A DNA stretch of 64,000 nucleotides from Escherichia phage cardinal. The stretch is taken from the sequence record PQ567651.1; one strand, 5' to 3'. The notes under the pieces are model-generated. The model had not been told where the DNA came from. It saw only the letters and a list, made by a program, of their open reading frames with translations, and did not search any database. Below are positions 3,170 to 63,730 of this stretch, one piece after another. The position numbers and the translations under genes are program-made. Each line of letters starts with the position of its first letter. The stretch's first letter is position 1.

Positions 3170-3197
3170 ATACAAGAAAACCCGCCGAAGCGGGTTT
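3170..3197 (-). terminator. hairpin terminator (bidirectional-looking)
   Basis: aaacccgc-cgaa-gcgggttt hairpin with T-run on minus strand after gene 3203-3526. Confidence 0.45.
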
Positions 3198-6203: not shown

Positions 6204-6472
6204 TTGTCAGTATCCTTTTCAATAAATCCTGTGGTTTTACAAGGCACACATTCATACATCTGTCCAACATCTGCAACTACCCAACCCATTCCATTGCAAT
6301 AAGGACAGATTGTTTTGTTCTCTTTAGCATACACAGCCAGAAGTCTTTCTTCTAGCTTGTTGTAATCAGCAAGAAGAACATAGTCTCCTTCTGGATCTGG
6401 TACAATATCACATTGACCAGCAGCACCTTGGCTGTACACCTCTAAATCATATCGTGTAACCATTATTCCCAC
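6200..6472 (-). CDS. small zinc-ribbon-like protein
   Basis: CPYCNG...CVPCK cysteine pairs; overlapping start/stop with neighbours. Confidence 0.5.
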   Translation of the reverse strand: MGIMVTRYDLEVYSQGAAGQCDIVPDPEGDYVLLADYNKLEERLLAVYAKENKTICPYCNGMGWVVADVGQMYECVPCKTTGFIEKDTDK

Positions 6473-6681
6473 TCCGCAATCAGTTTTGGATTTTCTGCAC
6501 GAGAATAGAATGTTGTAATGTCACCGTAAGTGTACTCTTGTTCCGACAGTTTTACAAGAGAGATCATTTCACGATCTGGAGTACCAGGAATCCAATCAAA
6601 TACGGCAACGCCACGTGGTGTTACATAGAAACCAGATGTATTACCCGTAAACTTATCTTTTCCTTTATATAATTTGTACAC
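6463..6681 (-). CDS. hypothetical protein
   Basis: 72-aa ORF. Confidence 0.45.
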   Translation of the reverse strand: MYKLYKGKDKFTGNTSGFYVTPRGVAVFDWIPGTPDREMISLVKLSEQEYTYGDITTFYSRAENPKLIAEWE

Positions 6682-6734: not shown

Positions 6735-6805
6735 ACAGTTTTACTTTTCGTAAAAAACATGCTACCCTAATCTTATATACCGAGCGATAGCGAGGTAGAG
6801 AATAT
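6735..6805 (+). promoter_or_regulatory. conserved ~70-nt intergenic element, copy A
   Basis: ttttacttttcgtaaaaaacatgctaccctaa...cgagcgatagcgaggtag matches copy at 33616-33685. Confidence 0.4.
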
Positions 6806-6888
6806 TCCATGTTATACATGGAAAGAGTATATGTAATGTTACTAACTCTATAACTAACTATATACTCTTTATACCTTACTTACTACTC

Positions 6889-7131
6889 TTATTGAAGTTC
6901 AAAGATATCCCCATCTCCATCATATCCATACTCTAACTCTCCTGTATCATATAATACAATAAAGTCTGTATCATCTTCAATAAAAGATTTAGCATAATCT
7001 ACTAACTCTTCATTATCTTCATACCCTTCCAGGTACTCAATACGACCATTGATACATTTAGCTGCAACAACTCCTGGGCCATTGCTTGGAGTCCACTCAC
7101 TGTATACTCGCATACCTAATTCTTTAATCAT
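6889..7131 (-). CDS. hypothetical protein
   Basis: ORF; start set at ATG preceded by GAGGAG. Confidence 0.5.
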   Translation of the reverse strand: MIKELGMRVYSEWTPSNGPGVVAAKCINGRIEYLEGYEDNEELVDYAKSFIEDDTDFIVLYDTGELEYGYDGDGDIFELQ

Positions 7132-7348
7132 TGTTTGTCTCCTCATAATCAATGTAGTTGTAACACTTATTCTTTAAGAAATCTTCTGCTTGTTTCTTGT
7201 GTTTTAGAATGATGCACTTCTCTTTATTCTGTTCTACATCATTATGTAGATTGTATAAGTTAGATGCACCATACAGAATACCAATTAACAAAAGCAAAAA
7301 GATTGCTGTTGATAACAAAAATTGTTGCAACTTGTTTACAGACTTCAT
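7124..7348 (-). CDS. small membrane-anchored protein (paralog of 12134-12343)
   Basis: N-terminal hydrophobic helix; shared C-terminal motif C(I/V)(I/V)LKH..AE.FL...Y.(D/N)Y; AAGGAGG RBS. Confidence 0.55.
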   Translation of the reverse strand: MKSVNKLQQFLLSTAIFLLLLIGILYGASNLYNLHNDVEQNKEKCIILKHKKQAEDFLKNKCYNYIDYEETNND

Positions 7349-14542: not shown

Positions 14543-15000
14543 TTACACCTCTCATTAGTAGTTTGTTATGCGCGATATTGCATATTTTATGGAACACAGT
14601 GTACAGACATTTCTATTCAATGCAAGCATTATTTGCATCTTATAAATTTACGTCTCATGCCACACATCATACAGCGTCTTTTCATCTATTACAAGAACAG
14701 CAACCTAGGAACATCATTAATGGAGGGATTAGTATAGGGATTAGTATAGGATTTCCCTATCAATTATTCTATATATACCTAATATTTTTAACACACCCCT
14801 TTGTACATAATATAGACAAATAAATATCTATGCCACAAAAATTTTCTGGTATACCCGATTTATTTCGACACACCCCCTTTTCATAAGCGTAAAGTCAATA
14901 ATATCAATAACTTGCCGCAAAATACTGCTCGCTTGCGAGAGGTGCTTAACGCGATTTTCAGCGCCCCCCCGATTTCTGCCGACCGTCCCCCTCAAATATC

Positions 15001-15036
15001 AATGAGAATAATTATCATTTGCATTATCATTCAATG
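15001..15036. promoter_or_regulatory. Fur-box-like palindromic site(s)
   Basis: aatgagaataattatcatttgcattatcattcaatg; overlapping (n)AT(a/t)AT hexamers. Confidence 0.4.
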
Positions 15037-15198
15037 ACTTATAAGACTTTTGATTATTTTCTGAGCAAGAAAGGTACTACTCACAACAAAACAGATAAAT
15101 TCTAAGTAAATCAATGGCTTGGCAAGTCTAAACATCTATATACACCTTGCCAAATGAAATGATCTGGCGTGAAATAGTGCCACCCGTGGAAGATAGCT

Positions 15199-15217
15199 GA
15201 TAATGATTATCATTTGC
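15199..15217. promoter_or_regulatory. Fur-box-like 19-mer
   Basis: GATAATGATTATCATTTGC vs E. coli Fur consensus GATAATGATAATCATTATC (16/19). Confidence 0.45.
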
Positions 15218-15450
15218 ATACTTTCTGTACTATAAAACCGACTAAAAATCAAGATAATTCTGATTTATTGCGCTTTTAAGAGAGTAGGCTCAACAAATAA
15301 CAACAAATGAGGTATGTTATAGGGGCAATAGTATGAAAAATCATCTATTCAGATGTAAATAATTTTGCGCAATAGTGGTAATATTTTTCTTGACAAGAAA
15401 GATTTCTTTGTGTGCACATAGCGCCCCTGGAGGGTGGCGCATTATGATCA

Positions 15451-15504
15451 TCAGTGTCATTATTCATTTCAGTGTCATTATTCATTTCAGTGTCATTATT
15501 CACC
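15451..15504. repeat. tandem direct repeat, 3 x 18 bp
   Basis: tcagtgtcattattcatt repeated three times head-to-tail. Confidence 0.9.
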
Positions 15505-15779: not shown

Positions 15780-16203
15780 TATGGAATGATTACTACATGA
15801 AATGGTTACTGTATGAAATGATTATCTAAGTAATAGATAGGAAGGTAAAGATTAGATCATAAATAGATAGGATGTGAATTATTTAGTAATGTTACTAACA
15901 ATTTAATAGTTACTTTGTGCAACAATTCGATAGATTATAATTGTAGTTTTAAGGGTTAGATAGATTATATTTAGCTTAGTAATGATTTATATTAGTTATT
16001 ATTGTTTAATACAATGTTATCAATGAGATAGTAACAGTAAGTTATAAATAAAGGTGAGATAATTAGTTTTAATTTAGTTAGATAACTTATTATTTTATAG
16101 GTTAGATGGTCTTAAGTTAAGAATGATTCTCATTATTGCATTATGCAATTTATTGCATAAATAATCAGCTATAAATAAGAATGATTATCATTTAAGAGGA
16201 AAG
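15780..16203. repeat. AT-rich iteron-like region with Fur-box-like sites near 3' end
   Basis: repeated tagatag(g) and atgaaatg(g/a)tta motifs; agaatgattctcattattgc and agaatgattatcattta near 16120-16203. Confidence 0.5.
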
Positions 16204-16886: not shown

Positions 16887-17117
16887 TTATTTTTCAAAAA
16901 ATTTTTCTACTGTGATATTCTTCCCAGTGGGATTAGCTACTTTCAAAATTTTATCATGTACTGGACGCCCAAAAGAATAAGATCCGTATACAGTAAACCA
17001 ATAATCACCGTCAGGCTGTACTATCACCGCTGCATAGGGTACGCCTTTTTCGTTATTGCTGACAGAATAGATCACATTGCCGTTAATAGCTTCAGCGCGT
17101 TTAATTTGTTCGATCAT
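16887..17117 (-). CDS. hypothetical protein
   Basis: 76-aa ORF preceded by promoter/stem-loop cassette. Confidence 0.55.
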   Translation of the reverse strand: MIEQIKRAEAINGNVIYSVSNNEKGVPYAAVIVQPDGDYWFTVYGSYSFGRPVHDKILKVANPTGKNITVEKFFEK

Positions 17118-17134
17118 GATATGATTCCTATATT

Positions 17135-17195
17135 GAGCGGGAAACCACTTCCCGCCTTACGTGATACATCTTAGTATAAGGGCGATCCGGTGTCA
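17135..17195 (-). promoter_or_regulatory. promoter + 5' stem-loop cassette
   Basis: minus strand: TTGACA-N17-TAAGAT then GGCGGGAAGTGGTTTCCCGC hairpin before RBS. Confidence 0.6.
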
Positions 17196-17317
17196 ATAGG
17201 TAGAATTGTAAAGATTTGATAGTTTATTTCTTTGATGTTTTGTTATTTGATAGGTGGAAGCTATCAATATATAATAAGATCGTCCGGTGATTATCTTCCC
17301 CTGCTCCCAGGTGCCGC

Positions 17318-17352
17318 CCGTTCAATAAGCATAACAAAAAACAGGACAAAAA
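17318..17352 (-). terminator. hairpin terminator after gene 17373-17576
   Basis: acagg...cctgt stem followed by T-run on minus strand. Confidence 0.4.
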
Positions 17353-17372
17353 CAAGCCCTGTTTTGTAAAGA

Positions 17373-17576
17373 TTAGATGATCTGCATATCCTCCACGATA
17401 ATTTCTAATTTCCAAACAAGATGATCTAAGCTCCCTGATAAAAATGATTCCGATACATAACCGCCATCTGACACCGTAGCAAGGATCTCGCCATTTGCTT
17501 GCTCTTTGATTTGAACATCCAGGCGGTTAGCCTTTGCTTTATTCAGGACGGCGATCAGGCGGTTAGCTGTAGTCAT
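17373..17576 (-). CDS. hypothetical protein
   Basis: 67-aa ORF with GGAAGGAAA RBS. Confidence 0.5.
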   Translation of the reverse strand: MTTANRLIAVLNKAKANRLDVQIKEQANGEILATVSDGGYVSESFLSGSLDHLVWKLEIIVEDMQII

Positions 17577-17590
17577 GGTGTTTTCCTTCC

Positions 17591-17654
17591 AGTTGTGAGC
17601 GGCACTATTGCCGCCCTACGAAATACATTCTACCCGATTTATAATTGTTGTCAA
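17591..17654 (-). promoter_or_regulatory. promoter + 5' stem-loop cassette
   Basis: TTGACA-N16-TAGAAT then GGGCGGCAATAGTGCCGCTC hairpin. Confidence 0.55.
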
Positions 17655-17655
17655 A

Positions 17656-17925
17656 CTATTTTTTCAAGCTCGACCAGTCAAAACACGGGGCGATCTCGTT
17701 AAAACTTGTACCATGTAAAGCACATAATTTTTTAGCAATAGCCGCCGTAACCTGGCGTTGTACGCGCGGATCTGCTACTGATTGGAGAAAATAGGCGGTT
17801 TTATATGTGATCATGCTTTCGCCTGTTTCCTTGTTAACGTGGTGCACGGTTTTAGCCTTATCATCTTTTACCAGGGTGTAACCGGATTCGATGGCCTTGA
17901 TTGCAACGTCCAAAGATATTTTCAT
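17656..17925 (-). CDS. hypothetical protein
   Basis: 89-aa ORF. Confidence 0.5.
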   Translation of the reverse strand: MKISLDVAIKAIESGYTLVKDDKAKTVHHVNKETGESMITYKTAYFLQSVADPRVQRQVTAAIAKKLCALHGTSFNEIAPCFDWSSLKK

Positions 17926-17972
17926 GATTTACCTCTTTATTGACGGCGGGGAATACTCCCCCGCCTTATTAA

Positions 17973-18143
17973 TTACTCTTCATCGTCGCCGTTATAGTAT
18001 TCAATGCCGTTTTCATCGGTTACAGTAATGTTAACGCCACCGATAGCAACACGATCACGGGCAAACGTCATGGCTTCATTTAAATCTTCAGACCAAAAAA
18101 TATTGTGACCTTTGCGCGATACATAAAACATAGTTGGGATCAT
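17973..18143 (-). CDS. hypothetical small protein, 56 aa
   Basis: ATG after cassette at 18166-18226; not in track. Confidence 0.45.
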   Translation of the reverse strand: MIPTMFYVSRKGHNIFWSEDLNEAMTFARDRVAIGGVNITVTDENGIEYYNGDDEE

Positions 18144-18165
18144 GATTTGTTTCTCTTCTGTTGTG

Positions 18166-18226
18166 AGCGGGAAACCATTTCCCGCCCTATGTGATAAACT
18201 TTACTACGTTGTTTGCCTAGTGTCAA
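18166..18226 (-). promoter_or_regulatory. promoter + 5' stem-loop cassette
   Basis: TTGACA-N17-TAAAGT then cacatag-GGCGGGAAATGGTTTCCCGC. Confidence 0.6.
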
Positions 18227-18227
18227 A

Positions 18228-18512
18228 TTATTTTTTAATGTTTTGCCCTACAAAATTGATCACTTCCTTAAGCTGTTTCTCAGTCATGATCGTGCCTGGT
18301 AATTCTTCTTTGATTTCTTCCGGTAGATAGATATTACCGCGCCAGGTTAATAAACAACCGTTTTGATCTTCGCAGATAGAATAAGAGAAGATCCACTCAT
18401 TATCATTCTCAAGCTCCCAAAAGCACAAAAAATCTTCTTTCCCTAAATTTTCAACGGTTAAACATAATCCGCGACGTGCTGCATAGTTGGAAAGTGCTTT
18501 TGTGATCTTCAT
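18228..18512 (-). CDS. hypothetical protein
   Basis: 94-aa ORF. Confidence 0.5.
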   Translation of the reverse strand: MKITKALSNYAARRGLCLTVENLGKEDFLCFWELENDNEWIFSYSICEDQNGCLLTWRGNIYLPEEIKEELPGTIMTEKQLKEVINFVGQNIKK

Positions 18513-18532
18513 AGCTTATCTCTTCTGTTAAG

Positions 18533-18594
18533 GCGGGGAAACCATTTCCCCGCTCTATGAGATACAATATACTATCTGTTAGGTGTGCTGTCAA
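18533..18594 (-). promoter_or_regulatory. promoter + 5' stem-loop cassette
   Basis: TTGACA-N17-TATATT then GCGGGGAAATGGTTTCCCCGCC. Confidence 0.6.
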
Positions 18595-18918
18595 TCAATA
18601 ATCTTTAAGATTTTCTACATTTACAAAAGTGCGTTTATTTTCTAAGTTTTCGCCGTACCATTGCCCCATGTTGATTTCTGCGGTGCGCAACCAGGACATG
18701 CCGCGCTCTATCTTTTTACTTGCAATCTCGATCCGGCTTTTGCATAGTGCTTTCGCTTGCAATGTAAAAACACTATTGCCCTGTAATGCTTCCAGGTCAT
18801 CATGTGCAAGGCGATACTCTTTAAAGCCTGATTCTATCATTTCAATAGCATCAAGTAAACGCGCGCGATGATAGAAAAAATCAGAGTTATCCAAATAAAC
18901 ACCGATCACAGATTTCAT
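18595..18918 (-). CDS. hypothetical protein
   Basis: ORF from ATG (MKSVIGVY) with AAAGGG RBS. Confidence 0.5.
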   Translation of the reverse strand: MKSVIGVYLDNSDFFYHRARLLDAIEMIESGFKEYRLAHDDLEALQGNSVFTLQAKALCKSRIEIASKKIERGMSWLRTAEINMGQWYGENLENKRTFVNVENLKDY

Positions 18919-19247
18919 AATTTTACCCTTTTGTTTGCGGCCTTTGCCGTTTTCAAGATATAGTTTAAAGCATAACAAAAAATTGTCAAGCCTTTAAAGC
19001 GTACAACTATAAAACCTATTAAAACACAATGTATAACAACATGGCTATAGTAGCAATACAACATAAAGCCATGCTTGTTTTCCTTCCTTCCTCGTATGCT
19101 GGATTTATTACGCTATATTGTACGGGAATAATTTTCATGCTGTTTCCTTAATGTCTTAAAACGTGGTTTACAATAGAAACAAGCATACAGAAGAAAAAAG
19201 ATCCTGTCAATAAGATACCGAAAAATAAATGTAAATAGGGCATGGTT

Positions 19248-19550
19248 TTACTCCTTAAAAAAATCATTGACAATTAAACTGATAACGCCCAGCACCAGAT
19301 CACCAGGTAGTGCCGCGCTTTCGTTGTTGCTTGTTTGCACTTCCTCACTAGTACCAGCACGATAGATTGCATGGTAAGCAATAGTATAATAACCTTTCGT
19401 TATTTCTTTAAGATTAATGATTAGCACGTTATTTGTTTCATCTTGAAACAATTTAGCGGTGATAGTATTGTTTTCTTTTACACTATCGACTTTTATTGAT
19501 GGATCATTTACACCAGAAAAAAGAAAAAACGTTTTAGCTATGCCGTTCAT
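19248..19550 (-). CDS. hypothetical protein
   Basis: 100-aa ORF with AAGGAGA RBS; TTGACA-N15-TATAAG upstream. Confidence 0.5.
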   Translation of the reverse strand: MNGIAKTFFLFSGVNDPSIKVDSVKENNTITAKLFQDETNNVLIINLKEITKGYYTIAYHAIYRAGTSEEVQTSNNESAALPGDLVLGVISLIVNDFFKE

Positions 19551-19597
19551 GTAGTTCTCCTTTGTTGTGTGTATCTTATAACGTGCTTTCTATGTTG

Positions 19598-19999
19598 TCA
19601 ATCTTTTATCTCGGTGCATTTTGCCAGGGTATACGTTGCAAGTGCTGACACTAGTTTTTCATTGCTACGATCTGCGGCTGTACTGTGTACTTTTTGAATA
19701 CTTTTTAACCACGGCGTAAAATTTTGAGTAGTCAGCACACTGGTAATAATTTCACATGGCACATCTTCATTTAAGCCGTTAACAATAGATTTATCTATTT
19801 TTGCCGTTAGTTGTGTAACAGCACCATAAGCGATCATGTGTGAATCCTCCATGATTTCATCGGGGATCGCATTATTAATAAGCATGACGTTTTCCATTGC
19901 ATCAACGGCGCTTAATTCTGCTACTGTGGAGGATATCGCCGCGCTAGATGTTCCAACCATGCCAAAAGAGATTAAACCAGCGATCAATAATTTTTTCAT
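19598..19999 (-). CDS. secreted/periplasmic hypothetical protein
   Basis: N-terminal signal peptide MKKLLIAGLISFGMVGTSSAA. Confidence 0.55.
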   Translation of the reverse strand: MKKLLIAGLISFGMVGTSSAAISSTVAELSAVDAMENVMLINNAIPDEIMEDSHMIAYGAVTQLTAKIDKSIVNGLNEDVPCEIITSVLTTQNFTPWLKSIQKVHSTAADRSNEKLVSALATYTLAKCTEIKD

Positions 20000-20007
20000 T
20001 TCTTGCC

Positions 20008-20190
20008 TCATATATGTTTTATTGAGATTATATTGTCACTATATACAACGTTTTTCAACGTGTCAATAAAAATCTTATTGCCTTCAATCCCCAGGATCAC
20101 GCCGCTAGTTATGAAGCCATATTGATCACGATATCGGGCGCATAACCTTTGCCCCTGGGCTAGTGCCTTGCTTATTTCGTCTAATTTCAT
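20008..20190 (-). CDS. hypothetical protein
   Basis: 60-aa ORF with AGGAG RBS. Confidence 0.45.
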   Translation of the reverse strand: MKLDEISKALAQGQRLCARYRDQYGFITSGVILGIEGNKIFIDTLKNVVYSDNIISIKHI

Positions 20191-20283
20191 TTTTAAAGCT
20201 CCTGTAAAGCCGTCTAACGTTGATTTATAGGCTTATCCTGGCGTTACCATTGCCTATGGGTAACAAGCCTCTATATAAGCTAA

Positions 20284-20308
20284 AAGGGCGCTTATTGCGC
20301 CCTTTTTT
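20284..20308 (-). terminator. bidirectional hairpin terminator
   Basis: gggcgc-ttatt-gcgccc flanked by T-runs on both strands. Confidence 0.5.
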
Positions 20309-20309
20309 G

Positions 20310-20447
20310 TTATTCGTTCCAGTATCTTTTTGTGCTGCGATCTCTTTTTGTTTTGTTCCGCTTGTCGCCTTTTTTGGTGATCTCTTCGTTCCAATTTTTA
20401 CGCGCCTTGCTGCGGTTGAATTTTTCGATCTGCTGTGATGCGTTCAT
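20310..20447 (-). CDS. very basic small protein, 45 aa
   Basis: MNASQQIEKFNRSKARKNWNEEITKKGDKRNKTKRDRSTKRYWNE; AAGAGGAAG RBS. Confidence 0.4.
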   Translation of the reverse strand: MNASQQIEKFNRSKARKNWNEEITKKGDKRNKTKRDRSTKRYWNE

Positions 20448-20462
20448 GTTTCTTCCTCTTAA

Positions 20463-20822
20463 TTACGCCACGTTATGCTGTTTTGCCAGGATTACGATCA
20501 TGCTTGCAATATATAACCAATAATTTTCCCGCTCACGGGTAACGGTTGTTTCTTTGCTTGTTTCTTTTATGTACTTCCATTCAATTAACAAGTGATCGAT
20601 CTCGTTATAATCAAAAGCAATATTGATTTCTGACGGTAAACCTTGTAACCAGGAGGCTATCGCCTTGATCATGTTGTGATTGTAACGTTTTTGATTATCG
20701 GGATACCAGTATTCAGATGTAAAACGGCGCATCAGTTCGGTGATCTTTTCTTTTTCTGTTGTAGTACCCTCAAAAGAAATAGCCGACACAATGTAAGTTT
20801 TAATTGCTTTTACTGATTTCAT
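20463..20822 (-). CDS. hypothetical protein
   Basis: 119-aa ORF. Confidence 0.5.
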   Translation of the reverse strand: MKSVKAIKTYIVSAISFEGTTTEKEKITELMRRFTSEYWYPDNQKRYNHNMIKAIASWLQGLPSEINIAFDYNEIDHLLIEWKYIKETSKETTVTRERENYWLYIASMIVILAKQHNVA

Positions 20823-20842
20823 AATCTTATCTCTTTATTGTT

Positions 20843-20901
20843 GGCGGGAAACCATTCCCCGCCGTTGTTGTTACTTTACTTATAAATGATGCTACTGTCA
20901 A
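20843..20901 (-). promoter_or_regulatory. promoter + 5' stem-loop cassette
   Basis: TTGACA-N17-TAAAGT then GGCGGGGAATGGTTTCCCGCC. Confidence 0.6.
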
Positions 20902-20908
20902 ACGGATA

Positions 20909-21079
20909 TTATTTGTTTTTTAACGTTAATGTTCCCAGCTTATCAGCGTGACGCAGACCAGGAAAGATCCATTTTCCTGATTCATCTTTTACCGGGGCTT
21001 TAAGCGTAGCGCCCAGGTTGGCGGCATTAACTTTACGTGCAACGTTGCGAGCGGCTTCACGGGTAGCGAAAGTGATCAT
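20909..21079 (-). CDS. hypothetical small protein, 56 aa
   Basis: AAGAGGAAAA RBS; not in track. Confidence 0.4.
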   Translation of the reverse strand: MITFATREAARNVARKVNAANLGATLKAPVKDESGKWIFPGLRHADKLGTLTLKNK

Positions 21080-21103
21080 GATGTTTTCCTCTTCTCTTTG
21101 TTA

Positions 21104-21165
21104 GGCGGTGGGCTATTCCACCGCCTTGATGAATACAGTTTACTTTATTTTTGCAGTATTGCAAG
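21104..21165 (-). promoter_or_regulatory. promoter-like + 5' stem-loop cassette (variant)
   Basis: GGCGGTGGAATAGCCCACCGCC hairpin with TTGCAA-N16-TAAACT upstream. Confidence 0.45.
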
Positions 21166-21170
21166 CGGTT

Positions 21171-21386
21171 TTATGAAATAAATGTCAAAGTAAAATCATA
21201 ATCTTTTGACAGTTTATATTGCACCTTGTTACCGTATATGTCACCTTTACGTAAAGATCCGCGAATACCTATTACATCCTTTACATCTTTAAGATTTTTC
21301 ACGCCTGTAATGTCTTTATTGAAATGATCGTGATCAGAAAATAAAACCTGCTTTGCATTTTTTAACAGTGTGCGGATATTAGCCAT
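21171..21386 (-). CDS. hypothetical protein
   Basis: 71-aa ORF. Confidence 0.5.
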   Translation of the reverse strand: MANIRTLLKNAKQVLFSDHDHFNKDITGVKNLKDVKDVIGIRGSLRKGDIYGNKVQYKLSKDYDFTLTFIS

Positions 21387-21405
21387 TTGATAATCTCTCT
21401 TACTA

Positions 21406-21464
21406 GGGGCGGCACTATTGCCGCCCTATGCATTACATTTTACTGATTTTAGTTATCTTGTCAA
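21406..21464 (-). promoter_or_regulatory. promoter + 5' stem-loop cassette
   Basis: TTGACA-N16-TAAAAT then GGGCGGCAATAGTGCCGCCCC. Confidence 0.6.
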
Positions 21465-21472
21465 TATTATTT

Positions 21473-21700
21473 TTAGTTTAATTGATCCAGGCACAACAAG
21501 CGATCAACATTCAGATCGGTTAGGCTAATCGTTGGCACCTGGTAGGATTCGATGTACTCAACGCTCGACCATTGCCCGAAGTTAGCGACCGCCCAGCTAT
21601 TCAAGGAAGAGTGAAGATCATCCCCTTTCTTCTCGGTGATAACTGCTACTACCTGGGAGCTTCCAACCGTACCGGATACGCGAACAATAACGATAGCCAT
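21473..21700 (-). CDS. hypothetical protein
   Basis: 75-aa ORF. Confidence 0.5.
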   Translation of the reverse strand: MAIVIVRVSGTVGSSQVVAVITEKKGDDLHSSLNSWAVANFGQWSSVEYIESYQVPTISLTDLNVDRLLCLDQLN

Positions 21701-21721
21701 AATGATAACCTTTCTTTGATT

Positions 21722-21781
21722 TGGCGGGAAACCATTTCCCGCCCTATGTGATATATCTTACACTAATTTAAAACGTTGTCA
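21722..21781 (-). promoter_or_regulatory. promoter + 5' stem-loop cassette
   Basis: TTGACA-N16-TAAGAT then atatcacatag-GGCGGGAAATGGTTTCCCGCC. Confidence 0.65.
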
Positions 21782-21877
21782 AATTATTTTCTATTTCTTC
21801 CGTAATAGCCCAATTTATGATCTAAGCTAAAACGTTTTGTGAGATAGGTCGAACGATGTTTCATTTTTATGTCTCCT

Positions 21878-22117
21878 TTACATTCCAACCATAGCGGCAC
21901 GGATCGCGGTTTTACTGAACTTGAATCCGTCTGGCGTTTTATCTTGATCCATACTTTCAAGAAATAACATCATATCCCGCGCTGCGTCATTCTTATTGGT
22001 GTTAGCTGCGATAAATTCACGCGCAAGATTATAAAAACCTTCATCGTTGTTGATCCAAAGGCTTACATTCCAATGAGTTTTGTTTTTGTGACCTAAGAAC
22101 ATTTTAGATTTAGCCAT
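21878..22117 (-). CDS. hypothetical protein
   Basis: 79-aa ORF. Confidence 0.5.
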   Translation of the reverse strand: MAKSKMFLGHKNKTHWNVSLWINNDEGFYNLAREFIAANTNKNDAARDMMLFLESMDQDKTPDGFKFSKTAIRAAMVGM

Positions 22118-22140
22118 GATGTTAATCTCTTTTTCAGTGA

Positions 22141-22199
22141 GGCGGGAACTATTCCCGCTCTCGATATAAGTATTATATGCTTTTTATTCGTGCTGTCAA
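22141..22199 (-). promoter_or_regulatory. promoter + 5' stem-loop cassette
   Basis: TTGACA-N16-TATAAT then GCGGGAATAGTTCCCGCC. Confidence 0.65.
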
Positions 22200-22205
22200 T
22201 GCTTT

Positions 22206-22571
22206 TTATAAATCTTTTTTACGTTTAACATCGCTTGCATGACTGTATACAGCGATCCCATTATCACGGCAAAAACGGGAAAGATACGCGCCGCGTGAAA
22301 ACTCTTTGCCCTCCAGGTTGATAACCTTGCTAAACTCTTCCAGGGCGACGGTATCAAAATGATCCCCATAACCATATTGAAACGGAACGTTAACGACTTC
22401 AATCAGTTTACCGCCGATCTCAACGTCAACCATCAAAGAGAAATAAGTATTACCATAAGACTTTTGAAACCAGCGACGGGCGCTAATATGTACCGCTTCA
22501 ATGCTGGATAGTTCAATTTTAGCAGTGTTAGCCAGGGTAGCATAAGCAGAAACATTGATATTTTTAGCCAT
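22206..22571 (-). CDS. hypothetical protein
   Basis: 121-aa ORF with AAAGAGA RBS. Confidence 0.5.
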   Translation of the reverse strand: MAKNINVSAYATLANTAKIELSSIEAVHISARRWFQKSYGNTYFSLMVDVEIGGKLIEVVNVPFQYGYGDHFDTVALEEFSKVINLEGKEFSRGAYLSRFCRDNGIAVYSHASDVKRKKDL

Positions 22572-22666
22572 AGTCTTTAATCTCTTTTGATTAGTTAGGA
22601 GTATTCCCGATAAAAGTTATTATGCTTGTACTATCGTTCGTTGTCAATAGCACAAGACTAAAACTT

Positions 22667-22846
22667 TTAACGATAATCATCATAGGCTTTATTGACCTGG
22701 CGAATATAGCATTCAAAAGCTAGATCAATAGATTTATATTCACGGATATAATCACCATAGGAAACCACATACATTTCTATAGCTTCCTCATATGCCAGGA
22801 TGATAGAATCTAAACCTACGATCTCAGTCTTTGCAATAATAGCCAT
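22667..22846 (-). CDS. hypothetical small protein, 59 aa
   Basis: ORF downstream of cassette 22934-22989; not in track. Confidence 0.4.
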   Translation of the reverse strand: MAIIAKTEIVGLDSIILAYEEAIEMYVVSYGDYIREYKSIDLAFECYIRQVNKAYDDYR

Positions 22847-22933
22847 GCTTTTATTCCTTAGTAATGTTTCAATCTATATAAGCATTATAGCTTACTGATT
22901 TCAGGTGTCAAGTGATTTTTTATTTCACCTTAT

Positions 22934-22989
22934 GGGGCGTTGCCCCGCTTTATGTGGTACATATTACGGGGCTTGTTCGCATATGTCAA
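22934..22989 (-). promoter_or_regulatory. promoter + 5' stem-loop cassette
   Basis: TTGACA-N17-TAATAT then GCGGGGCAACGCCCC. Confidence 0.55.
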
Positions 22990-22992
22990 GCC

Positions 22993-23547
22993 TTACACAA
23001 GACAATTTTCATAATTTTTTAGGGCTTGTCTTTTTTCCTCTTCCGTCGGCATGTATGGCTGGATCTCTTCCTCTTCCAGGGTAGGCATGATTTCTTCCTC
23101 TTCCTCCTGGTCGTCCTGGTCTTCCTCTTGCGCTACTGCAACAAGTTTATTGATCTTCTCCTGGGCTTTAATCAATTTTGCATCTAGCACCATTTTAGCG
23201 GTGTTGTATACCGTCCATGCCATGCGTTTTTCTTCGTATGCTTTATCTAGTGCGGCTAATTTAGCGGGATACTCTTCCAACACCTTAAAAGCCGGATCAA
23301 TGCTGTATAAGGGATTATTTTTAGCGTCATCGCTTGGATCTGCGGCGCTTGCAATGTCAGCGTTGCCATTCGCCAGCCATCCAGGGCGAACGGATCGCGC
23401 CTTTGTGTTGCCGTTGCTCTTTGCCGCTCGATTTCCTATCTGCTCCCCGCTATACCCTACCATGTGATCGATCATGTCATCTGGTATTATGCGCGGATCA
23501 TTAGCGTCATGCTTTACCCAGGACTGGATCACATATTCACGCCCCAT
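22993..23547 (-). CDS. hypothetical protein with acidic C-terminal tract
   Basis: 184 aa; QEEDQDDQEEEEE run. Confidence 0.5.
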   Translation of the reverse strand: MGREYVIQSWVKHDANDPRIIPDDMIDHMVGYSGEQIGNRAAKSNGNTKARSVRPGWLANGNADIASAADPSDDAKNNPLYSIDPAFKVLEEYPAKLAALDKAYEEKRMAWTVYNTAKMVLDAKLIKAQEKINKLVAVAQEEDQDDQEEEEEIMPTLEEEEIQPYMPTEEEKRQALKNYENCLV

Positions 23548-23809
23548 GTTCGTTCGCCTCTTCTGTTAGTAGTTTACATACCTTAAACATGCTTGCCGCG
23601 TCTTTTGACGGTAGCCAGCCTATGCGATACACTCCAGGATCTGGATTCGTTATATCTGTTAATTGAGCGTTACGATGATTAAAAATAGTGTAACCGCCGC
23701 CAGCACGGGGATAAACATTATCTTTAAACCTGATAGCGTATCTCGCCAGGTTGAACGTTGTAGCATGTTCAAAAGCGATCACATTATCAAAAACTTTTAG
23801 AAAAAACAA
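23537..23809 (-). CDS. hypothetical protein
   Basis: 90-aa ORF, GGGGAGGA RBS. Confidence 0.5.
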   Translation of the reverse strand: MFFLKVFDNVIAFEHATTFNLARYAIRFKDNVYPRAGGGYTIFNHRNAQLTDITNPDPGVYRIGWLPSKDAASMFKVCKLLTEEANEHGA

Positions 23810-23976
23810 GATTATCCTCCCCAGCGTTTAAAGCCCGTTGCACGGTTATTTTTTAACTCTCGTTTTAGTCTCTTGCAACGGTTTACAAGTGCAAACCGTG
23901 CCGGAGTGGTAACAGTAGCGCCGTTTTTGGTGTGAATACTCATTACATATTGTTTCATAAAGTTTTATCCTATGTA

Positions 23977-24030
23977 AGCGGGAACTATTCCCGCTTTAAG
24001 ATAGCTTATCAGGTTTTAGTGCAATGTCAA
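23977..24030 (-). promoter_or_regulatory. promoter + 5' stem-loop cassette
   Basis: TTGACA-N16-TAAGCT then GCGGGAATAGTTCCCGCT. Confidence 0.55.
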
Positions 24031-24036
24031 CCGTTT

Positions 24037-24399
24037 TTATTCGTAAATTTTACCGCTTTCTACCCATACCATAACGCGGCGCATATTATCCCATGCATCT
24101 TGTCGCAGATTTAAGGCATGCAATTCTTCGGTTGTGCTCATACCTGGTACGGGCTTGCTATATGTTACAAAGAGATCGCCAGCATATTCATAAGCCAGGG
24201 TAAGATCACATTGAATCATCTTTTTAAGCATAGCATTAAGCATCATATTAGCGGCATGTTGATCACGTTTTAGCGGTAGCGTTGCGATCTGTGAGCGATA
24301 GCTTTCGATCCGTGCATCCACTGCATCACGTGGAAGATTTTTCACGTCGTCGCGGAAAGATACCAGGTTTAACATGATAGTATTGATTTGCTTGCTCAT
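24037..24399 (-). CDS. hypothetical protein
   Basis: 120-aa ORF. Confidence 0.5.
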   Translation of the reverse strand: MSKQINTIMLNLVSFRDDVKNLPRDAVDARIESYRSQIATLPLKRDQHAANMMLNAMLKKMIQCDLTLAYEYAGDLFVTYSKPVPGMSTTEELHALNLRQDAWDNMRRVMVWVESGKIYE

Positions 24400-24424
24400 T
24401 GTGTTACCCTTTCTTTGATGGCCT

Positions 24425-24484
24425 GGCGGGAAACCATTTCCCGCCCTATGTGATACATCTTATCAGATTAAAAAACGTTGTCAA
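24425..24484 (-). promoter_or_regulatory. promoter + 5' stem-loop cassette
   Basis: TTGACA-N16-TAAGAT then gtatcacatag-GGCGGGAAATGGTTTCCCGCC. Confidence 0.65.
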
Positions 24485-24503
24485 GAATATTTTTTAGATA
24501 ATT

Positions 24504-26180: not shown

Positions 26181-26184
26181 CGCT

Positions 26185-26217
26185 TGACAAGCGCCCGACA
26201 AGGGCGCATAATCTCTT
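26185..26217 (+). promoter_or_regulatory. sigma70-like promoter with palindrome in spacer
   Basis: TTGACA-agcgcccgacaagggcg-CATAAT; gcgccc...gggcgc inverted repeat. Confidence 0.5.
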
Positions 26218-26435
26218 ACATAGACAGGAACGCCTACCAATGGCGCTAAACTTGGTGATGATAGCCGCAGGGCATCGACAGCTATAATCGCCGGTAGCTC
26301 GTCTAAAATAAATTTGTAAAGAAATGTAAAGATAAAAATAATCGCTTGCTTTTGTTGTTGGTTATGCTATTCTTATTGTATGGCGAGGGGACACGGGAGC
26401 GCGAGACAAACACCGCCCCTGCGCGTTATTTTCTA

Positions 26436-26550
26436 AATGAGAAAATTCTCATTTGCTAATGATTCTCATTCTCTTACTGAGAATGATTATCACTTACATA
26501 ATTAAATGATAATGATTCTCATTTACAAATGAGAATGATTATCATACGCA
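26436..26550. promoter_or_regulatory. cluster of Fur-box-like palindromes
   Basis: aaatgagaaaattctcattt, aatgattctcattctc, gagaatgattatcac, gataatgattctcattta, gagaatgattatcatacg. Confidence 0.45.
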
Positions 26551-26564
26551 TACCTATAAAAACA

Positions 26565-26775
26565 CGAAATTGAACTTTTCATTTTTGATTTTTCTACGGA
26601 AAAAGGCAAAAAAACTTTAAATAAACTGGGGAATTTTTAAAAAATTGAAGTTTTCATTTTCAAAATCTGGATAGAAATACGTACAAAAACTTTAAATAAT
26701 TTTGACCAAACTTGAACTTTTCATTTTCAAAATTTGTACCCAAAAATCTGTAAAAACTTTAAATAATTTTGTACT
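26565..26775. repeat. three ~65-bp imperfect direct repeats
   Basis: units start aaattgaa(c/g)ttttcatttt... and end ...aaaaactttaaataa at about 26568, 26642, 26711. Confidence 0.8.
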
Positions 26776-27082
26776 TTTTATAAAAATGATTTTACTGTTC
26801 TGTTATAAGTAGTAGTTAAGAGATAGTATGCCTTTTAAAGATCAGATACCATAGTCAAACAAACAAATTAAATACTTTATTAACAGAGTACAGAATAATA
26901 TTTACTCTGGATATATTATTCAGAGGGTGGATTTCCGTACATGAAACCCACACCCCTTTTTATAAAAATAAAAATTTTCAAAATATCAGTAAATATCAGA
27001 TTGTGCTTTTAGATAAACAGCAAGGTCTGTATGCCATTTTCCTAAAAGATTTTGTCCTTTCCAACAGTCCTTATTTTCCACA

Positions 27083-28936: not shown

Positions 28937-28973
28937 CTACTACTCCTTTTATTAAATCTGGCATCAATACAAG

Positions 28974-29003
28974 AAAACCCGCCGAAGCGGGTTTTTATTT
29001 GCT
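28974..29003 (-). terminator. bidirectional hairpin terminator
   Basis: aaaacccgc-cgaa-gcgggtttt with T-runs. Confidence 0.5.
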
Positions 29004-33315: not shown

Positions 33316-33588
33316 ATGAAAAATAAACACCCTTACTACAAATTATTGCATGTACTGCGCCGATTGCGCAATAAACAGATTGAAGATTTCCGTCACTTCA
33401 AGCGTGATCGTGTGAATCGTCAATGGATGGATCATCGTTTCTTCTCTTTAACTGTACGTAAGTTCCGTGAAGAGATTAAGAAGACAGACCAGGTAATTGC
33501 AGGTGCTAAACGTGCAATCTCTATGTCAAAAATCACAGGTGTAAATCATATGTACGACTTCAAAACAGACTCTGTTGTACCTATGTAA
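33316..33588 (+). CDS. basic hypothetical protein
   Basis: 90 aa, K/R-rich. Confidence 0.5.
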   Translation: MKNKHPYYKLLHVLRRLRNKQIEDFRHFKRDRVNRQWMDHRFFSLTVRKFREEIKKTDQVIAGAKRAISMSKITGVNHMYDFKTDSVVPM

Positions 33589-33615: not shown

Positions 33616-33685
33616 TATTGACTTTTTCAGAAAAACATGCTACCCTAAACCTGAAAGGTGACGAGCGAAGCGAGTTAGTATTCTC
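33616..33685 (+). promoter_or_regulatory. conserved ~70-nt intergenic element, copy B
   Basis: ttgactttttcagaaaaacatgctaccctaa...gacgagcgaagcgagttag matches 6735-6805. Confidence 0.4.
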
Positions 33686-33752
33686 TATAGATATTGTTCC
33701 TGTCACTCATGGAGGGGCAGGAACAGAGTATATTACTGTATAGGAGAATGCT

Positions 33753-33959
33753 ATGGATATTACTACACTAAAGTTTATACTTCTCTTCTTACTTATAGTT
33801 ATAGGCTTAATTGTTATACCCTATCTATATGTCTACATGTTATCTCGTAAGTATGGTTATGAGCGTATACCATTTTACTATTTAATACCTGTCTTAGTTA
33901 TCTATCTATTTCTCTTTTGTAGATATTGTCCTGAACTAGTCCTGAACATTGGAAGTTAG
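33753..33959 (+). CDS. small membrane protein
   Basis: 68 aa, two hydrophobic helices. Confidence 0.5.
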   Translation: MDITTLKFILLFLLIVIGLIVIPYLYVYMLSRKYGYERIPFYYLIPVLVIYLFLFCRYCPELVLNIGS

Positions 33960-41091: not shown

Positions 41092-41526
41092 ATGTCTATT
41101 GTGACACAAATGAAAGCAGATCGTATCTTAGCACGTACAACCGATAAGGGTGCTTTTGCTTTGTTAACTAATATTATTGGTGAGTTTGACCTTGCTCGTA
41201 CTCAAAAGGCAAATCTGAATAAATCAGAAGATGATATTATGATTAACATTGTTAAGATTGGTATTGCACACGCTAAAGAGGAACTAGACTCGCTTAAGAA
41301 AGTTAATGCCTCCATTAGCAAATGTGAGCGAGCTATGCGTGATATCACCACTCTGGAGAAATATTTACCAGAAATGCTATCTGAAGATGATCTTCGAGCT
41401 ATTGCCGAAGAATTTGCCTTGACAGGCAAGAAAATGCCAGATATGATGAAACACCTTAAAGCAGAGTATCCGAATCAATATGATGGAAAACTTGCTTCTA
41501 CCATTGCAAAAGAAATTTTAAACTAA
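41092..41526 (+). CDS. GatB/YqeY-domain protein
   Basis: LSEDDLRAIAEEFALTGKKMPDMMKHLKAEY resembles YqeY C-terminal pattern. Confidence 0.5.
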   Translation: MSIVTQMKADRILARTTDKGAFALLTNIIGEFDLARTQKANLNKSEDDIMINIVKIGIAHAKEELDSLKKVNASISKCERAMRDITTLEKYLPEMLSEDDLRAIAEEFALTGKKMPDMMKHLKAEYPNQYDGKLASTIAKEILN

Positions 41527-42583: not shown

Positions 42584-43441
42584 ATGACCCAAAAACTATA
42601 TGAGGATGTAATCGGATTCCTCGAACAAACATCCGAAGAATTTACTCGTGAAAATGCAAACAAACCTGCAATGATTGTTAATACTCACCGAGATTTACTA
42701 GCAGGTATCCTAAGCAAGCACATGGCAATGACCCATATTTTACCTGAAGATTTAGCAGAATGGCATAAAAGTGGGTATGGTCACATCCACGATTTAGATT
42801 ATTTACTCTCACCTTTAACTAATTGTTGCCTGGTAAATTACCAAGATATGCTTGAGAACGGTTTCCGTATTGGTAATGCACATATTGAAAAACCAAAATC
42901 TATCGGTGTAGCGACTACTGTCCTAACTCAAATTATTCAAGCAGTAGCTTCTAGCCAATATGGTGGACAAACTTGTGCACATGTTGATACTGGGCTTAGT
43001 CAATACGTTAAAGCAAGTTTTAATAAAATATATGCCGATGTTGGCGATTATGATATTGCTATGCGTATGGTAGATAAACAGGTCTATGATGCAATGCAAA
43101 CTTTAATCTACCAGGTGAACACTCTAATGAGTGTAAATGGTCAGTCACCTTTTATAACAATTAGTTTAGGTTTGGATACCTCTGCTTTTGGTAGAATGAT
43201 CACTAAAAACTACCTAATGGTGCACAAACAAGGATTGGGAAAAGATAGGGTAACTCCTGTGTTTCCTAAAGTTATCTTCTTCTTGGAAGATGGTGTTAAC
43301 ATGAAAGCTGGCGATCCAAACTATGATTTGAAGCAACTGGCAATGGAGTGTTGTGCTGAACGCATTTATCCTGATTTTATCTCTGTACCTTTAAACAAAG
43401 AAGTTACAGGATCTTCAGATGGTCGCGTCACAAGCATGGGT
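42584..43441 (+). CDS. nrdD: anaerobic ribonucleoside-triphosphate reductase NrdD, exon 1 (3' boundary approximate)
   Basis: N-terminal NrdD-like sequence ...GYGHIHDLDY...; frame hits stop inside intron. Confidence 0.75.
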
Positions 43442-43688
43442 AAACTATAACTGCTCATGTAAAATCTGCCTAAACGGGGGAACTCTCAACGAGACAATCC
43501 CGTGCTAAACGTAACAGAACTCCCAACACAGAAGAAGGGGGGTACTATTACGAAATGCCTAACGACTAGCTGTGATGAATGTAGCAGCGTAGGGTGTAAG
43601 CCTATGACACCCCAAATGGTAGACATGCTTTAAGCATGAAGATATAGTCTGATCTGCATGGTGACATGCAGCAGCACGTAATGGTGCG
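43442..43688 (+). ncRNA. group I self-splicing intron (ORF-less) in nrdD; boundaries approximate
   Basis: aaatctgcctaaacggggg...gagacaatcccgtgctaaa...aatgcctaacgacta...aagatatagtctga.ctgcatggtgacatgcag resembles the T4 nrdD (sunY) intron core as recalled from memory. Confidence 0.7.
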
Positions 43689-63706: not shown

Positions 63707-63730
63707 AAGGGGCGAAAGCCCCTTTACAAA
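63707..63730 (+). terminator. hairpin, weak terminator
   Basis: aaggggc-gaaa-gcccctt, T tract weak. Confidence 0.35.

Follow-up and report, generated by a model that had tools for sequence, protein, structure and literature searches.

The window, a stretch of 64,000 nucleotides from Escherichia phage cardinal (PQ567651.1), comes from a phi92-like coliphage (Justusliebigvirus, subfamily Stephanstirmvirinae). Two of its intergenic spacers carry related copies of one sequence module, copy A at 6740-6832 and copy B at 33618-33752, which have an exact 18-mer in common and share further motifs downstream of it. Over these sites and their flanks, the Escherichia phages AV123 and phi92 and about 50 further Justusliebigvirus genomes match the window at 97.6-100% identity. 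In the terms of the phi92 annotation, copy A lies between gp024 and gp023, and copy B between gp209 and gp208; that annotation marks ribosome-binding sites only in the two spacers, with no promoter and no RNA feature. Both copies sit within the early arms, amid other sigma-70-type promoters (Table 1).

Known families offer little guidance. At either site no Rfam match reaches the gathering score, and permissive scans return chance-level matches only (E at least 0.07); the proteins that flank the sites gave no informative family; 5,426 E. coli genomes contain no similarity to the module; and a search of the literature for promoter or transcript data on the subfamily found none. A search for tRNA and tmRNA was likewise empty. 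A group I catalytic intron does lie elsewhere in the window, in the plus-strand block at 43396-43671 (+; RF00028, 72.3 bits, E = 2e-16, a full-length match to the model).

Table 1. Features of the two copies of the module and of the genes beside them (window coordinates)
Feature	Position	Strand	Basis or remark
Minus-strand genes around copy A	6463-6681 and 6889-7152	-	ORF map
Copy A -35 box TTTACT	6740-6745	+	Aligns with TTGACT of copy B and homologues
Copy A extended -10, TG-C-TACCCT	6760-6768	+	Spacer 17 nt; TG and TACCCTA invariant in 21/21
Copy A predicted start, A	6775	+	7th nt past the -10 hexamer; purine there in all homologues
Copy A 5' hairpin, tandem G·A, ACC-GA-GC-GAUA-GC-GA-GGU	6779-6796	+	Minimum-energy and centroid folds
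Copy A second hairpin, TTCCATG-TTATA-CATGGAA	6805-6823	+	Fold, compensatory changes
Copy A AGAGTATAT and third hairpin (AGAGTATAT ... ATATACTCT)	6824-6868	+	Fold; AGAGTATAT (6824-6832) common to copy B
Plus-strand genes around copy B	33316-33588 and 33753-33959	+	ORF map
Copy B -35 box TTGACT	33618-33623	+	Alignment
Copy B extended -10, TG-C-TACCCT	33638-33646	+	Alignment
Copy B inverted repeat ACCT-GAA-AGGT, across the predicted start	33649-33659	+	Covaries among B copies
Copy B predicted start, G	33653	+	Purine at 7th nt
Copy B 5' hairpin, tandem G·A, GAC-GA-GC-GAA-GC-GA-GUU	33660-33676	+	Fold, covariation
Copy B remaining structured 5' UTR	33677-33752	+	TATTCTCT 33679-33686, second hairpin 33696-33724, AGAGTATAT 33725-33733
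Copy B Shine-Dalgarno AGGAGA	33742-33747	+	Within the 5' UTR
Gene downstream of copy B: 68-aa hydrophobic protein (phi92 gp208)	33753-33959	+	ORF

The original prediction was of an element of roughly 70 nt, duplicated in one orientation. The repeat is borne out: the exact 18-mer AAAAACATGCTACCCTAA stands at 6753-6770 and at 33631-33648, on the plus strand both times and nowhere else in the window, and the strand context is as claimed, A lying within a minus-strand block and B within a plus-strand one. An ungapped alignment that starts at the -35 box gives 26 identities in 31 positions. A second motif further downstream is also present in both copies (CGAGCGATAGCGAG at 6781 in A, CGAGCGAAGCGAG at 33662 in B), but what had been read as a t/a substitution within it is a 1-nt indel, GAGCGA-T-AGCGAG in A against GAGCGA-AGCGAG in B. 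The length was set too short: the likeness runs beyond 70 nt, through a second hairpin and AGAGTATAT, both common to the two copies.

Taken alone, the exact match is only mildly unusual, since 15 of 200 resamples of the window under a first-order Markov model also contain a repeated 18-mer; chance is excluded for the repeat because it is conserved across genera. The proposed search for further copies gives only two per window, and relatives keep both. No third site for AAAAACATGCTACCCTAA exists in the window at up to 3 mismatches (0.15 expected by chance), nor one for the downstream motif at up to 2, and the 98 kb of phAPEC8 examined hold no copy beyond the known two. A weak 'third copy' at 20870-20900 (repeat family D9) was rejected: its sequence is that of an ordinary early promoter, at 20901, read on the complementary strand. 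The window has other repeats of its own. An exact 28-nt repeat, ATACAAGAAAACCCGCCGAAGCGGGTTT, is found at 3170-3197 and 28967-28994, and an exact 19-nt repeat, AAGGGGCGAAAGCCCCTTT, at 2425-2443 and 63707-63725; both form GC-rich hairpins with GNRA-type loops and the look of bidirectional terminators. Three head-to-tail copies of an 18-nt unit, CATTATTCATTTCAGTGT (repeat family D11), occupy 15440-15502.

Homologues come from Justusliebigvirus, Phapecoctavirus, unclassified Klebsiella and Citrobacter members of the Stephanstirmvirinae, and metagenomes. The BLAST queries were the bare spacers; IMG/VR was scanned with a generic promoter pattern and metagenomes with a shortened one, and, the matches listed being mostly chance, the true homologues were recovered by filtering. 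Among the matches listed, 21 distinct sequences remained, and the divergent B copy of phiWec188 brings the set to 22. Discarded as chance were three matches in GC-rich coding sequence, one terminator hairpin that happens to come after TACCCTAA, and one similar promoter with neither hairpin nor protein similarity.

By BLAST, Phapecoctavirus genomes (phAPEC8 and many others) show 79% identity over about 96 nt at 2 places per record; the Klebsiella phages listed (KP13-26, FKP3, KP2025, phi1_175008) show 81-88% over 75-86 nt; Citrobacter phage Tr1 shows 76-78%. Matches to the element come from 133 phage records and matches to the neighbouring gene gp209 from 135, and every one of these records bears a Stephanstirmvirinae-type name. 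Both loci were fetched for four genomes (phAPEC8, KP13-26, Tr1 and IMG/VR UViG_3300030441_000047), and in these, as in phi92 and the window, two copies stand in the same orientation at syntenic positions: A antisense in a gene block beside the gp024 homologue, B in sense directly after the gp209 homologue. The distance from A to B, measured in four genomes, is about 27-33 kb (26.9 kb in the window, 29.4 in KP13-26, 33.1 in Tr1 and 33.7 in phAPEC8). Identity of the flanking proteins across lineages is only 37-59%, whereas TT.A.TTT, TG.TACCCTA and CGAGCGA..GCGAG are invariant in the alignment of 21. Synteny and invariance beside such divergent proteins indicate that the duplication is old and under strong purifying selection. 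Lack of conservation in relatives had been named as grounds for abandoning the original prediction; conservation is in fact very strong, and the module is the most conserved non-coding sequence noticed in the early arms, surpassing the adjacent protein genes. It is real, ancient, unannotated, and present twice per genome across the Stephanstirmvirinae lineages sampled.

The upstream half has the makeup of a sigma-70 promoter of the extended -10 kind. The -35 hexamers are close to TTGACA: 17 of the 21 sequences have TTGACT, three TTTACT and one TTGATT, with columns 13, 14, 16 and 18-20 of alignment A2 invariant in this region. The spacer, 17 nt in all but one homologue (18 nt), ends in TGn, whose invariant TG, one base upstream of the hexamer, is the mark of an extended -10. 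TACCCT fits TAnnnT in its second and sixth bases, A and T, but its middle CCC is far from consensus. The seventh nucleotide after the hexamer, the predicted start, is a purine in every copy, mostly with a pyrimidine before it. Conservation starts sharply at the -35 box, as would be expected of a promoter rather than of a longer RNA. The other early promoters of the window have ordinary, variable -10s (TAAGAT, TAGAAT and TATAAT, for example), so the fixed CCC of this pair points to a special constraint; TACCCT is a poor -10 hexamer, and its full invariance suggests a constraint beyond recognition by sigma-70. The suggestion of a promoter with a leader is thus well supported, by the invariant -35, TGn, TACCCT and start purine of 22 homologues and by the covarying hairpins that follow. 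The qualifier 'middle or late' is not: the promoter looks like a host sigma-70 promoter of the extended -10 kind, and both copies lie in the early arms.

One element sits awkwardly with this simple promoter. B copies and some A copies carry an inverted repeat that straddles the predicted start and varies in both arms (ACCC/GGGT, AACC/GGTT, CAC/GTG, AAAC/GTTT); the energies of its folds sum to -18.6, where shuffles give -4.4 +/- 2.6. The 5' arm belongs to the discriminator and precedes the predicted start; the repeat of another B copy is at L263 1204-1216. With a simple promoter this can be reconciled only if the repeat works in DNA or in RNA that reads through from the gene upstream; alternatively, the true start may be further upstream than predicted. 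In some of the B copies the 3' arm can extend the stem of the 5' hairpin instead, which hints at alternative pairings.

The downstream half folds. The 5' hairpin begins at about +4 to +8 of the predicted transcript and has, from the outside inward, 2-4 pairs of Watson-Crick or G·U type, the tandem G·A/A·G mismatch, a G-C and a C-G pair, and a loop of 3-4 nt. The loop varies among the 22 copies (GAA in 11, GAUA in nine, GAAU and GGGA in one each) and the stem is constant. The pair that flanks the G·A motif is CG in 14 of 21 copies, AU in five and unpaired in two; the next pair outward may be UA, UG, AU, GU or CG. These facts bear directly on the suggestion of a protein-binding site. If CGAGCGA(N)AGCGAG, at +7 to +22, were a double-stranded DNA operator for a repressor or activator of phage or host, the RNA fold would be incidental; and the motif is indeed invariant in sequence and not merely in pairing, contains a direct repeat of AGCGA, and is so placed as to suit a roadblock repressor. 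However, the centre of 3 or 4 nt changes the spacing of the half-sites by one base, which would turn one half-site with respect to the other; on either side of the motif the bases covary as Watson-Crick or G·U pairs; and the helices further downstream show compensatory changes and U·G pairs that are sensible only in RNA. Since loop length varies, the stem is invariant and the flanks covary, a hairpin is favoured over a duplex-DNA operator, which is very unlikely to be the function of the downstream motif. Indels of 1 nt and 5 nt inside the conserved core argue that the element is not coding.

The second hairpin follows 8-20 nt after the first, and its arms differ by compensatory changes: TTCCATG/CATGGAA in copy A of the window, TTTCATG/CATGAAA in two other homologues, GTTTCAT/ATGAAAC in phAPEC8, GTTCCTG/CAGGAAC in copy B of the window. 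RNAalifold gives eight B leaders the 5' hairpin and a 17-pair hairpin, with 95% of cells paired; 10 pairs are changed on both sides, compared with 3.7 +/- 1.2 in shuffles (none of 500 reaches 10) and with 1-3 pairs in slid controls. In the minimum-energy fold of copy B in the window, the Shine-Dalgarno AGGAGA is paired with UAUUCUCU (33679-33686). Two U·G pairs are kept in the B leaders, in 8/8 and 7/8 sequences, where the other strand would have A·C mismatches. Fold energy also favours the plus strand over its complement, at -33.3 vs -20.4 kcal/mol for B and -16.4 vs -13.4 for A (fold z -3.8 for B and -5.5 for A). The conserved U·G pairs and the stronger plus-strand folds indicate that the functional molecule is the plus-strand RNA.

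The contrary supposition, that the opposite strand is the functional one, would make the hairpins terminators or 3'-end stabilisers of the gene-sense transcripts at A and the promoter motif incidental, or a relic whose copies gene conversion keeps similar. The minus strand from 6823 to 6805, followed by TATTCTCT, does score as terminator-like. Moreover, the A and B copies of one genome share an identical stretch, GCCGAGCGAAGCGAGGGGAGATTCT, from about +8 to +32, where other lineages differ; such identity points either to gene conversion, as this supposition would have it, or to equivalent constraints. But the U-rich tail is not conserved in other genera, the minus strand carries no gene at B, U·G pairs would turn into A·C mismatches on that strand, the folds are weaker there, and invariant, correctly spaced -35, TG and -10 boxes in 22 sequences are unlike a relic. 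This use of the opposite strand is highly improbable.

What each copy serves differs. Copy B is, from its sequence, a putative promoter with a structured 5' UTR of about 100 nt for a small membrane-protein gene. In most lineages the gene after B encodes a small hydrophobic protein that starts with MD(V/I)MT.RF; phAPEC8-type genomes have a different small gene there. The gp208-type protein has no PHROG match.

Copy A has no ORF with a ribosome-binding site. Past about +58 (about 6833) its sequence is unconserved between genera and G-poor for 55-95 nt, in the window from the third hairpin to 6888; JLBYU50 has a 12-nt duplication (ACTAACTCTATA) in the loop of that hairpin. No convincing plus-strand intrinsic terminator follows copy A in the window. 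We infer a short non-coding RNA whose 3' end would be set by Rho or at the weak third hairpin; it should lie antisense to the minus-strand operon across the junction of gp023 and gp024. The small RNA of the original prediction is accordingly reasonable for copy A alone, which has no ORF and is antisense to a gene block, and does not apply to copy B.

Several other roles for the sites were considered and set aside. ORFs of 39-45 aa are annotated across the element, but their frames are unconserved and lie on opposite strands at A and B. A leader peptide (AUG-N6-AUG, in the second hairpin of A copies) was dropped, as it has no ribosome-binding site and the likeness comes from the palindromic CATG arms. 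Type I toxin-antitoxin pairing of A RNA with B mRNA was rejected: such a pair would need an sRNA complementary to the mRNA of the small hydrophobic protein, but the two RNAs are homologous, not complementary, and in five genomes the best duplex of B mRNA with the unique part of A RNA is no better than with shuffled A (z from -1.1 to +1.1). Copy A as the boundary of an early promoter array is weakened, both because looser scans give minus-strand promoters to its left (5511, 4435) and because phAPEC8 has a gene-sense promoter, at 20602, right by its A copy. A separate promoter for gp024 was sought in the window and none was found.

In public records, phAPEC8_0059 (L003 20383-20502) and the 'hypothetical protein' calls in both spacers of VivaForever, Eryne, EmilieFrey and others are almost certainly spurious. 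Two records, JLBYU50 (OK272470.1, L261 1-218) and inny (MN850601.1, L262 13-219), start by the site A spacer, at its gp023-side edge: JLBYU50 at the first base, inny 12 bases before. This is probably one convention copied from the other, and not evidence for a genome end.

Replication offers a further parallel. The T4 origins ori(uvsY) and ori(34) are promoters that prime replication; a gene is expressed from one of them as well, and a non-coding RNA comes from the other. The module, with a pair of promoters of a single special class, one coding and the other an orphan, recalls that arrangement, and the transcript might form an R-loop in AT-rich downstream DNA, such as the AT-rich, G-poor tracts after the A copies. 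But G-poor RNA disfavours stable R-loops, and the window has a better candidate for an origin in the 900-bp non-coding region with tandem repeats at 26181-27082; priming by this module is improbable in the extreme. The region just named, about 900 bp without an ORF of at least 50 aa, has five or six palindromes resembling the E. coli Fur box at 26437-26548 (TGAGAATGATTATCA and AAATGATAATGATTCTCATTT, for example) and, after them, three tandem repeats of 67-75 bp at 26567-26787. It is a candidate replication origin or iron-responsive control region, and probably corresponds to the 'non-coding' box drawn for rV5. Similar Fur-like boxes occur near 15 and 16.2 kb (14988-15024, 15183-15219, 16165-16195).

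The best explanation, to which we give a probability of about 0.65, is that the two sites are paralogous copies of a host sigma-70 extended -10 promoter joined to some 60 nt of its transcript. That is, an old duplication would have yielded two promoters with the unusual invariant -10 region TGnTACCCTAA; the transcript of each would start about 4-8 nt before a compact tandem-G·A hairpin, with the second hairpin next; the transcript of copy B would be the leader of gp208, in whose UTR the fold predicted for the window has a pyrimidine stretch paired to the ribosome-binding site downstream of it; copy A would fire against the minus-strand operon and give a short non-coding RNA antisense to the gp023-gp024 junction; and the 5' hairpin would give both transcripts one fate, whether by protection of the 5' end or through one trans-acting factor. 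The hairpin is taken as the shared functional part because both copies keep the same promoter and hairpin, and because A and B are identical over a stretch next to the hairpin in some lineages. The simplest reading of the sequences is that promoter and 5' hairpin form one unit, which would put two otherwise unrelated transcripts under the same control. The sequences show the anatomy, conservation, covariation and strand of the module; use of the promoters, the start positions, the length of the A transcript and the role of the hairpin are inferred from them.

Phages like phi92, phAPEC8 and rV5 are widely isolated for therapy, and their transcriptional control is essentially unstudied; a covarying fold in exactly two copies per genome gives a concrete experimental handle on regulation. 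In practical terms, several GenBank records can be corrected where they list spurious 'hypothetical protein' genes, and the module would lend itself to a clean new covariance model.

A different fate for the two transcripts is suggested by the put sites of phage HK022. The put RNA suppresses termination in cis by binding the zinc-binding domain of the beta' subunit of RNA polymerase. By analogy, the RNA with its two hairpins would remain attached to the polymerase that is making it, by itself or together with a phage protein, and render the enzyme insensitive to terminators and Rho, B covering the promoter-poor plus block and A running antisense through the early region. The layout is like that of putL and putR, two similar RNAs of about 70 nt with two stem-loops, just after sigma-70 early promoters (PMC9378689): there are two copies per genome, of about 60-70 nt, and the two stem-loops start a few nt from the 5' end, although two hairpins behind a promoter are a layout not specific to put. 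The put RNAs also have a -10-like sequence near +23 to +28 (PMC9378689), and most copies here have TAGTAT, TAGATT or GAGATT at about +24 to +30; but about 5 of the 21 copies lack that motif, which does not stand out statistically. Left unprotected, an untranslated antisense RNA from A would readily fall to Rho, and after 34022 the next consensus promoter on the plus strand comes only at 41419.

On the other hand, neither the sequence nor the detailed structure resembles put. Both promoters here point the same way, one of them antisense to a gene block; no conserved terminator stands downstream of either copy, a U-tract after the B hairpin being present in the KP13-26 lineage only; and long antisense transcription from A has no obvious benefit. 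A lambda nut site, with its boxB loop of 5 nt, GNRA-like, and its boxA, was rejected as a match, the loops of the module being of 3-4 nt and variable, with no conserved boxA. Processive antitermination of the put or nut kind is on balance unlikely.

HK022 is a lambdoid phage, and the module resides in large virulent myoviruses. In the boldest form of the analogy, it would be a new antitermination or polymerase-modifying leader of such phages, with A launching antisense transcription across the 25-kb early region; this is distinctly unlikely. The module would then be analogous to put, or would be a nut site for a phage protein that recognises the tandem-G·A hairpin, and antisense transcription from the orphan copy A would shut off early genes. 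Should the hairpin recruit a factor or modify RNA polymerase, control of the put or nut type would reach beyond temperate lambdoid phages.

Other known systems share parts of the promoter-hairpin unit. The RfaH ops element (GGCGGTAGnnTG) has conserved G5 and T6 in a hairpin of the non-template strand; as a candidate it was rejected, since AGCGATAGCGAG of copy A has A at position 5 and the T is missing in the 11 copies with GAA loops, B among them. PeSL, the promoter-early stem-loop cassette of T4-like phages, is a repeated intergenic composite of a sigma-70-type early promoter and a stem-loop (PMC4122927, PMC2839356). It resembles the module in being a promoter with a stem-loop, repeated in the intergenic spaces of a large myovirus. 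The PeSL stem-loop, however, is upstream of the promoter and is a terminator, whereas the hairpin of the module is downstream and transcribed; and PeSLs are present in many copies that flank variable ORFs and mediate shuffling, whereas the module has two copies, syntenic across genera. A closer analogue of PeSL in the window is the set of TTGACA promoters followed by the GGGCGGGAAATGGTTTCCCGCC hairpin at 17-24.5 kb. They form a dense minus-strand early promoter array (17100-24500; TTGACA, 16-17 nt, TAnnnT), in which a near-identical leader hairpin, GGGCGGGAAATGGTTTCCCGCC or GGGCGGCAATAGTGCCGCC, stands at about +8 and is followed by a ribosome-binding site; phAPEC8 has the family as well.

The remaining comparisons touch the two parts of the preferred reading, the shared 5' hairpin and the antisense RNA. 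Stabilising stem-loops at 5' termini, such as that of the ompA 5' UTR, place a hairpin near the primary 5' end and need no particular sequence. The module, like them, has a stable hairpin close to the 5' end, attached to unrelated downstream sequences; unlike them it has 12 invariant stem nucleotides, and its 4-8 unpaired 5' nucleotides exceed the usual, being rather long for a classical protective hairpin. Lambda oop and P22 sar are phage cis-antisense RNAs with promoters of their own. Copy A is likewise a short, non-coding, convergently transcribed unit within an operon, as predicted from its position and strand, but its promoter and 5' end are also those of an mRNA leader at another place in the genome, and it has no defined terminator. 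Set among these systems, the module appears to be a fresh example of a familiar type of element, with a modest chance of being a leader that modifies RNA polymerase or binds a factor.
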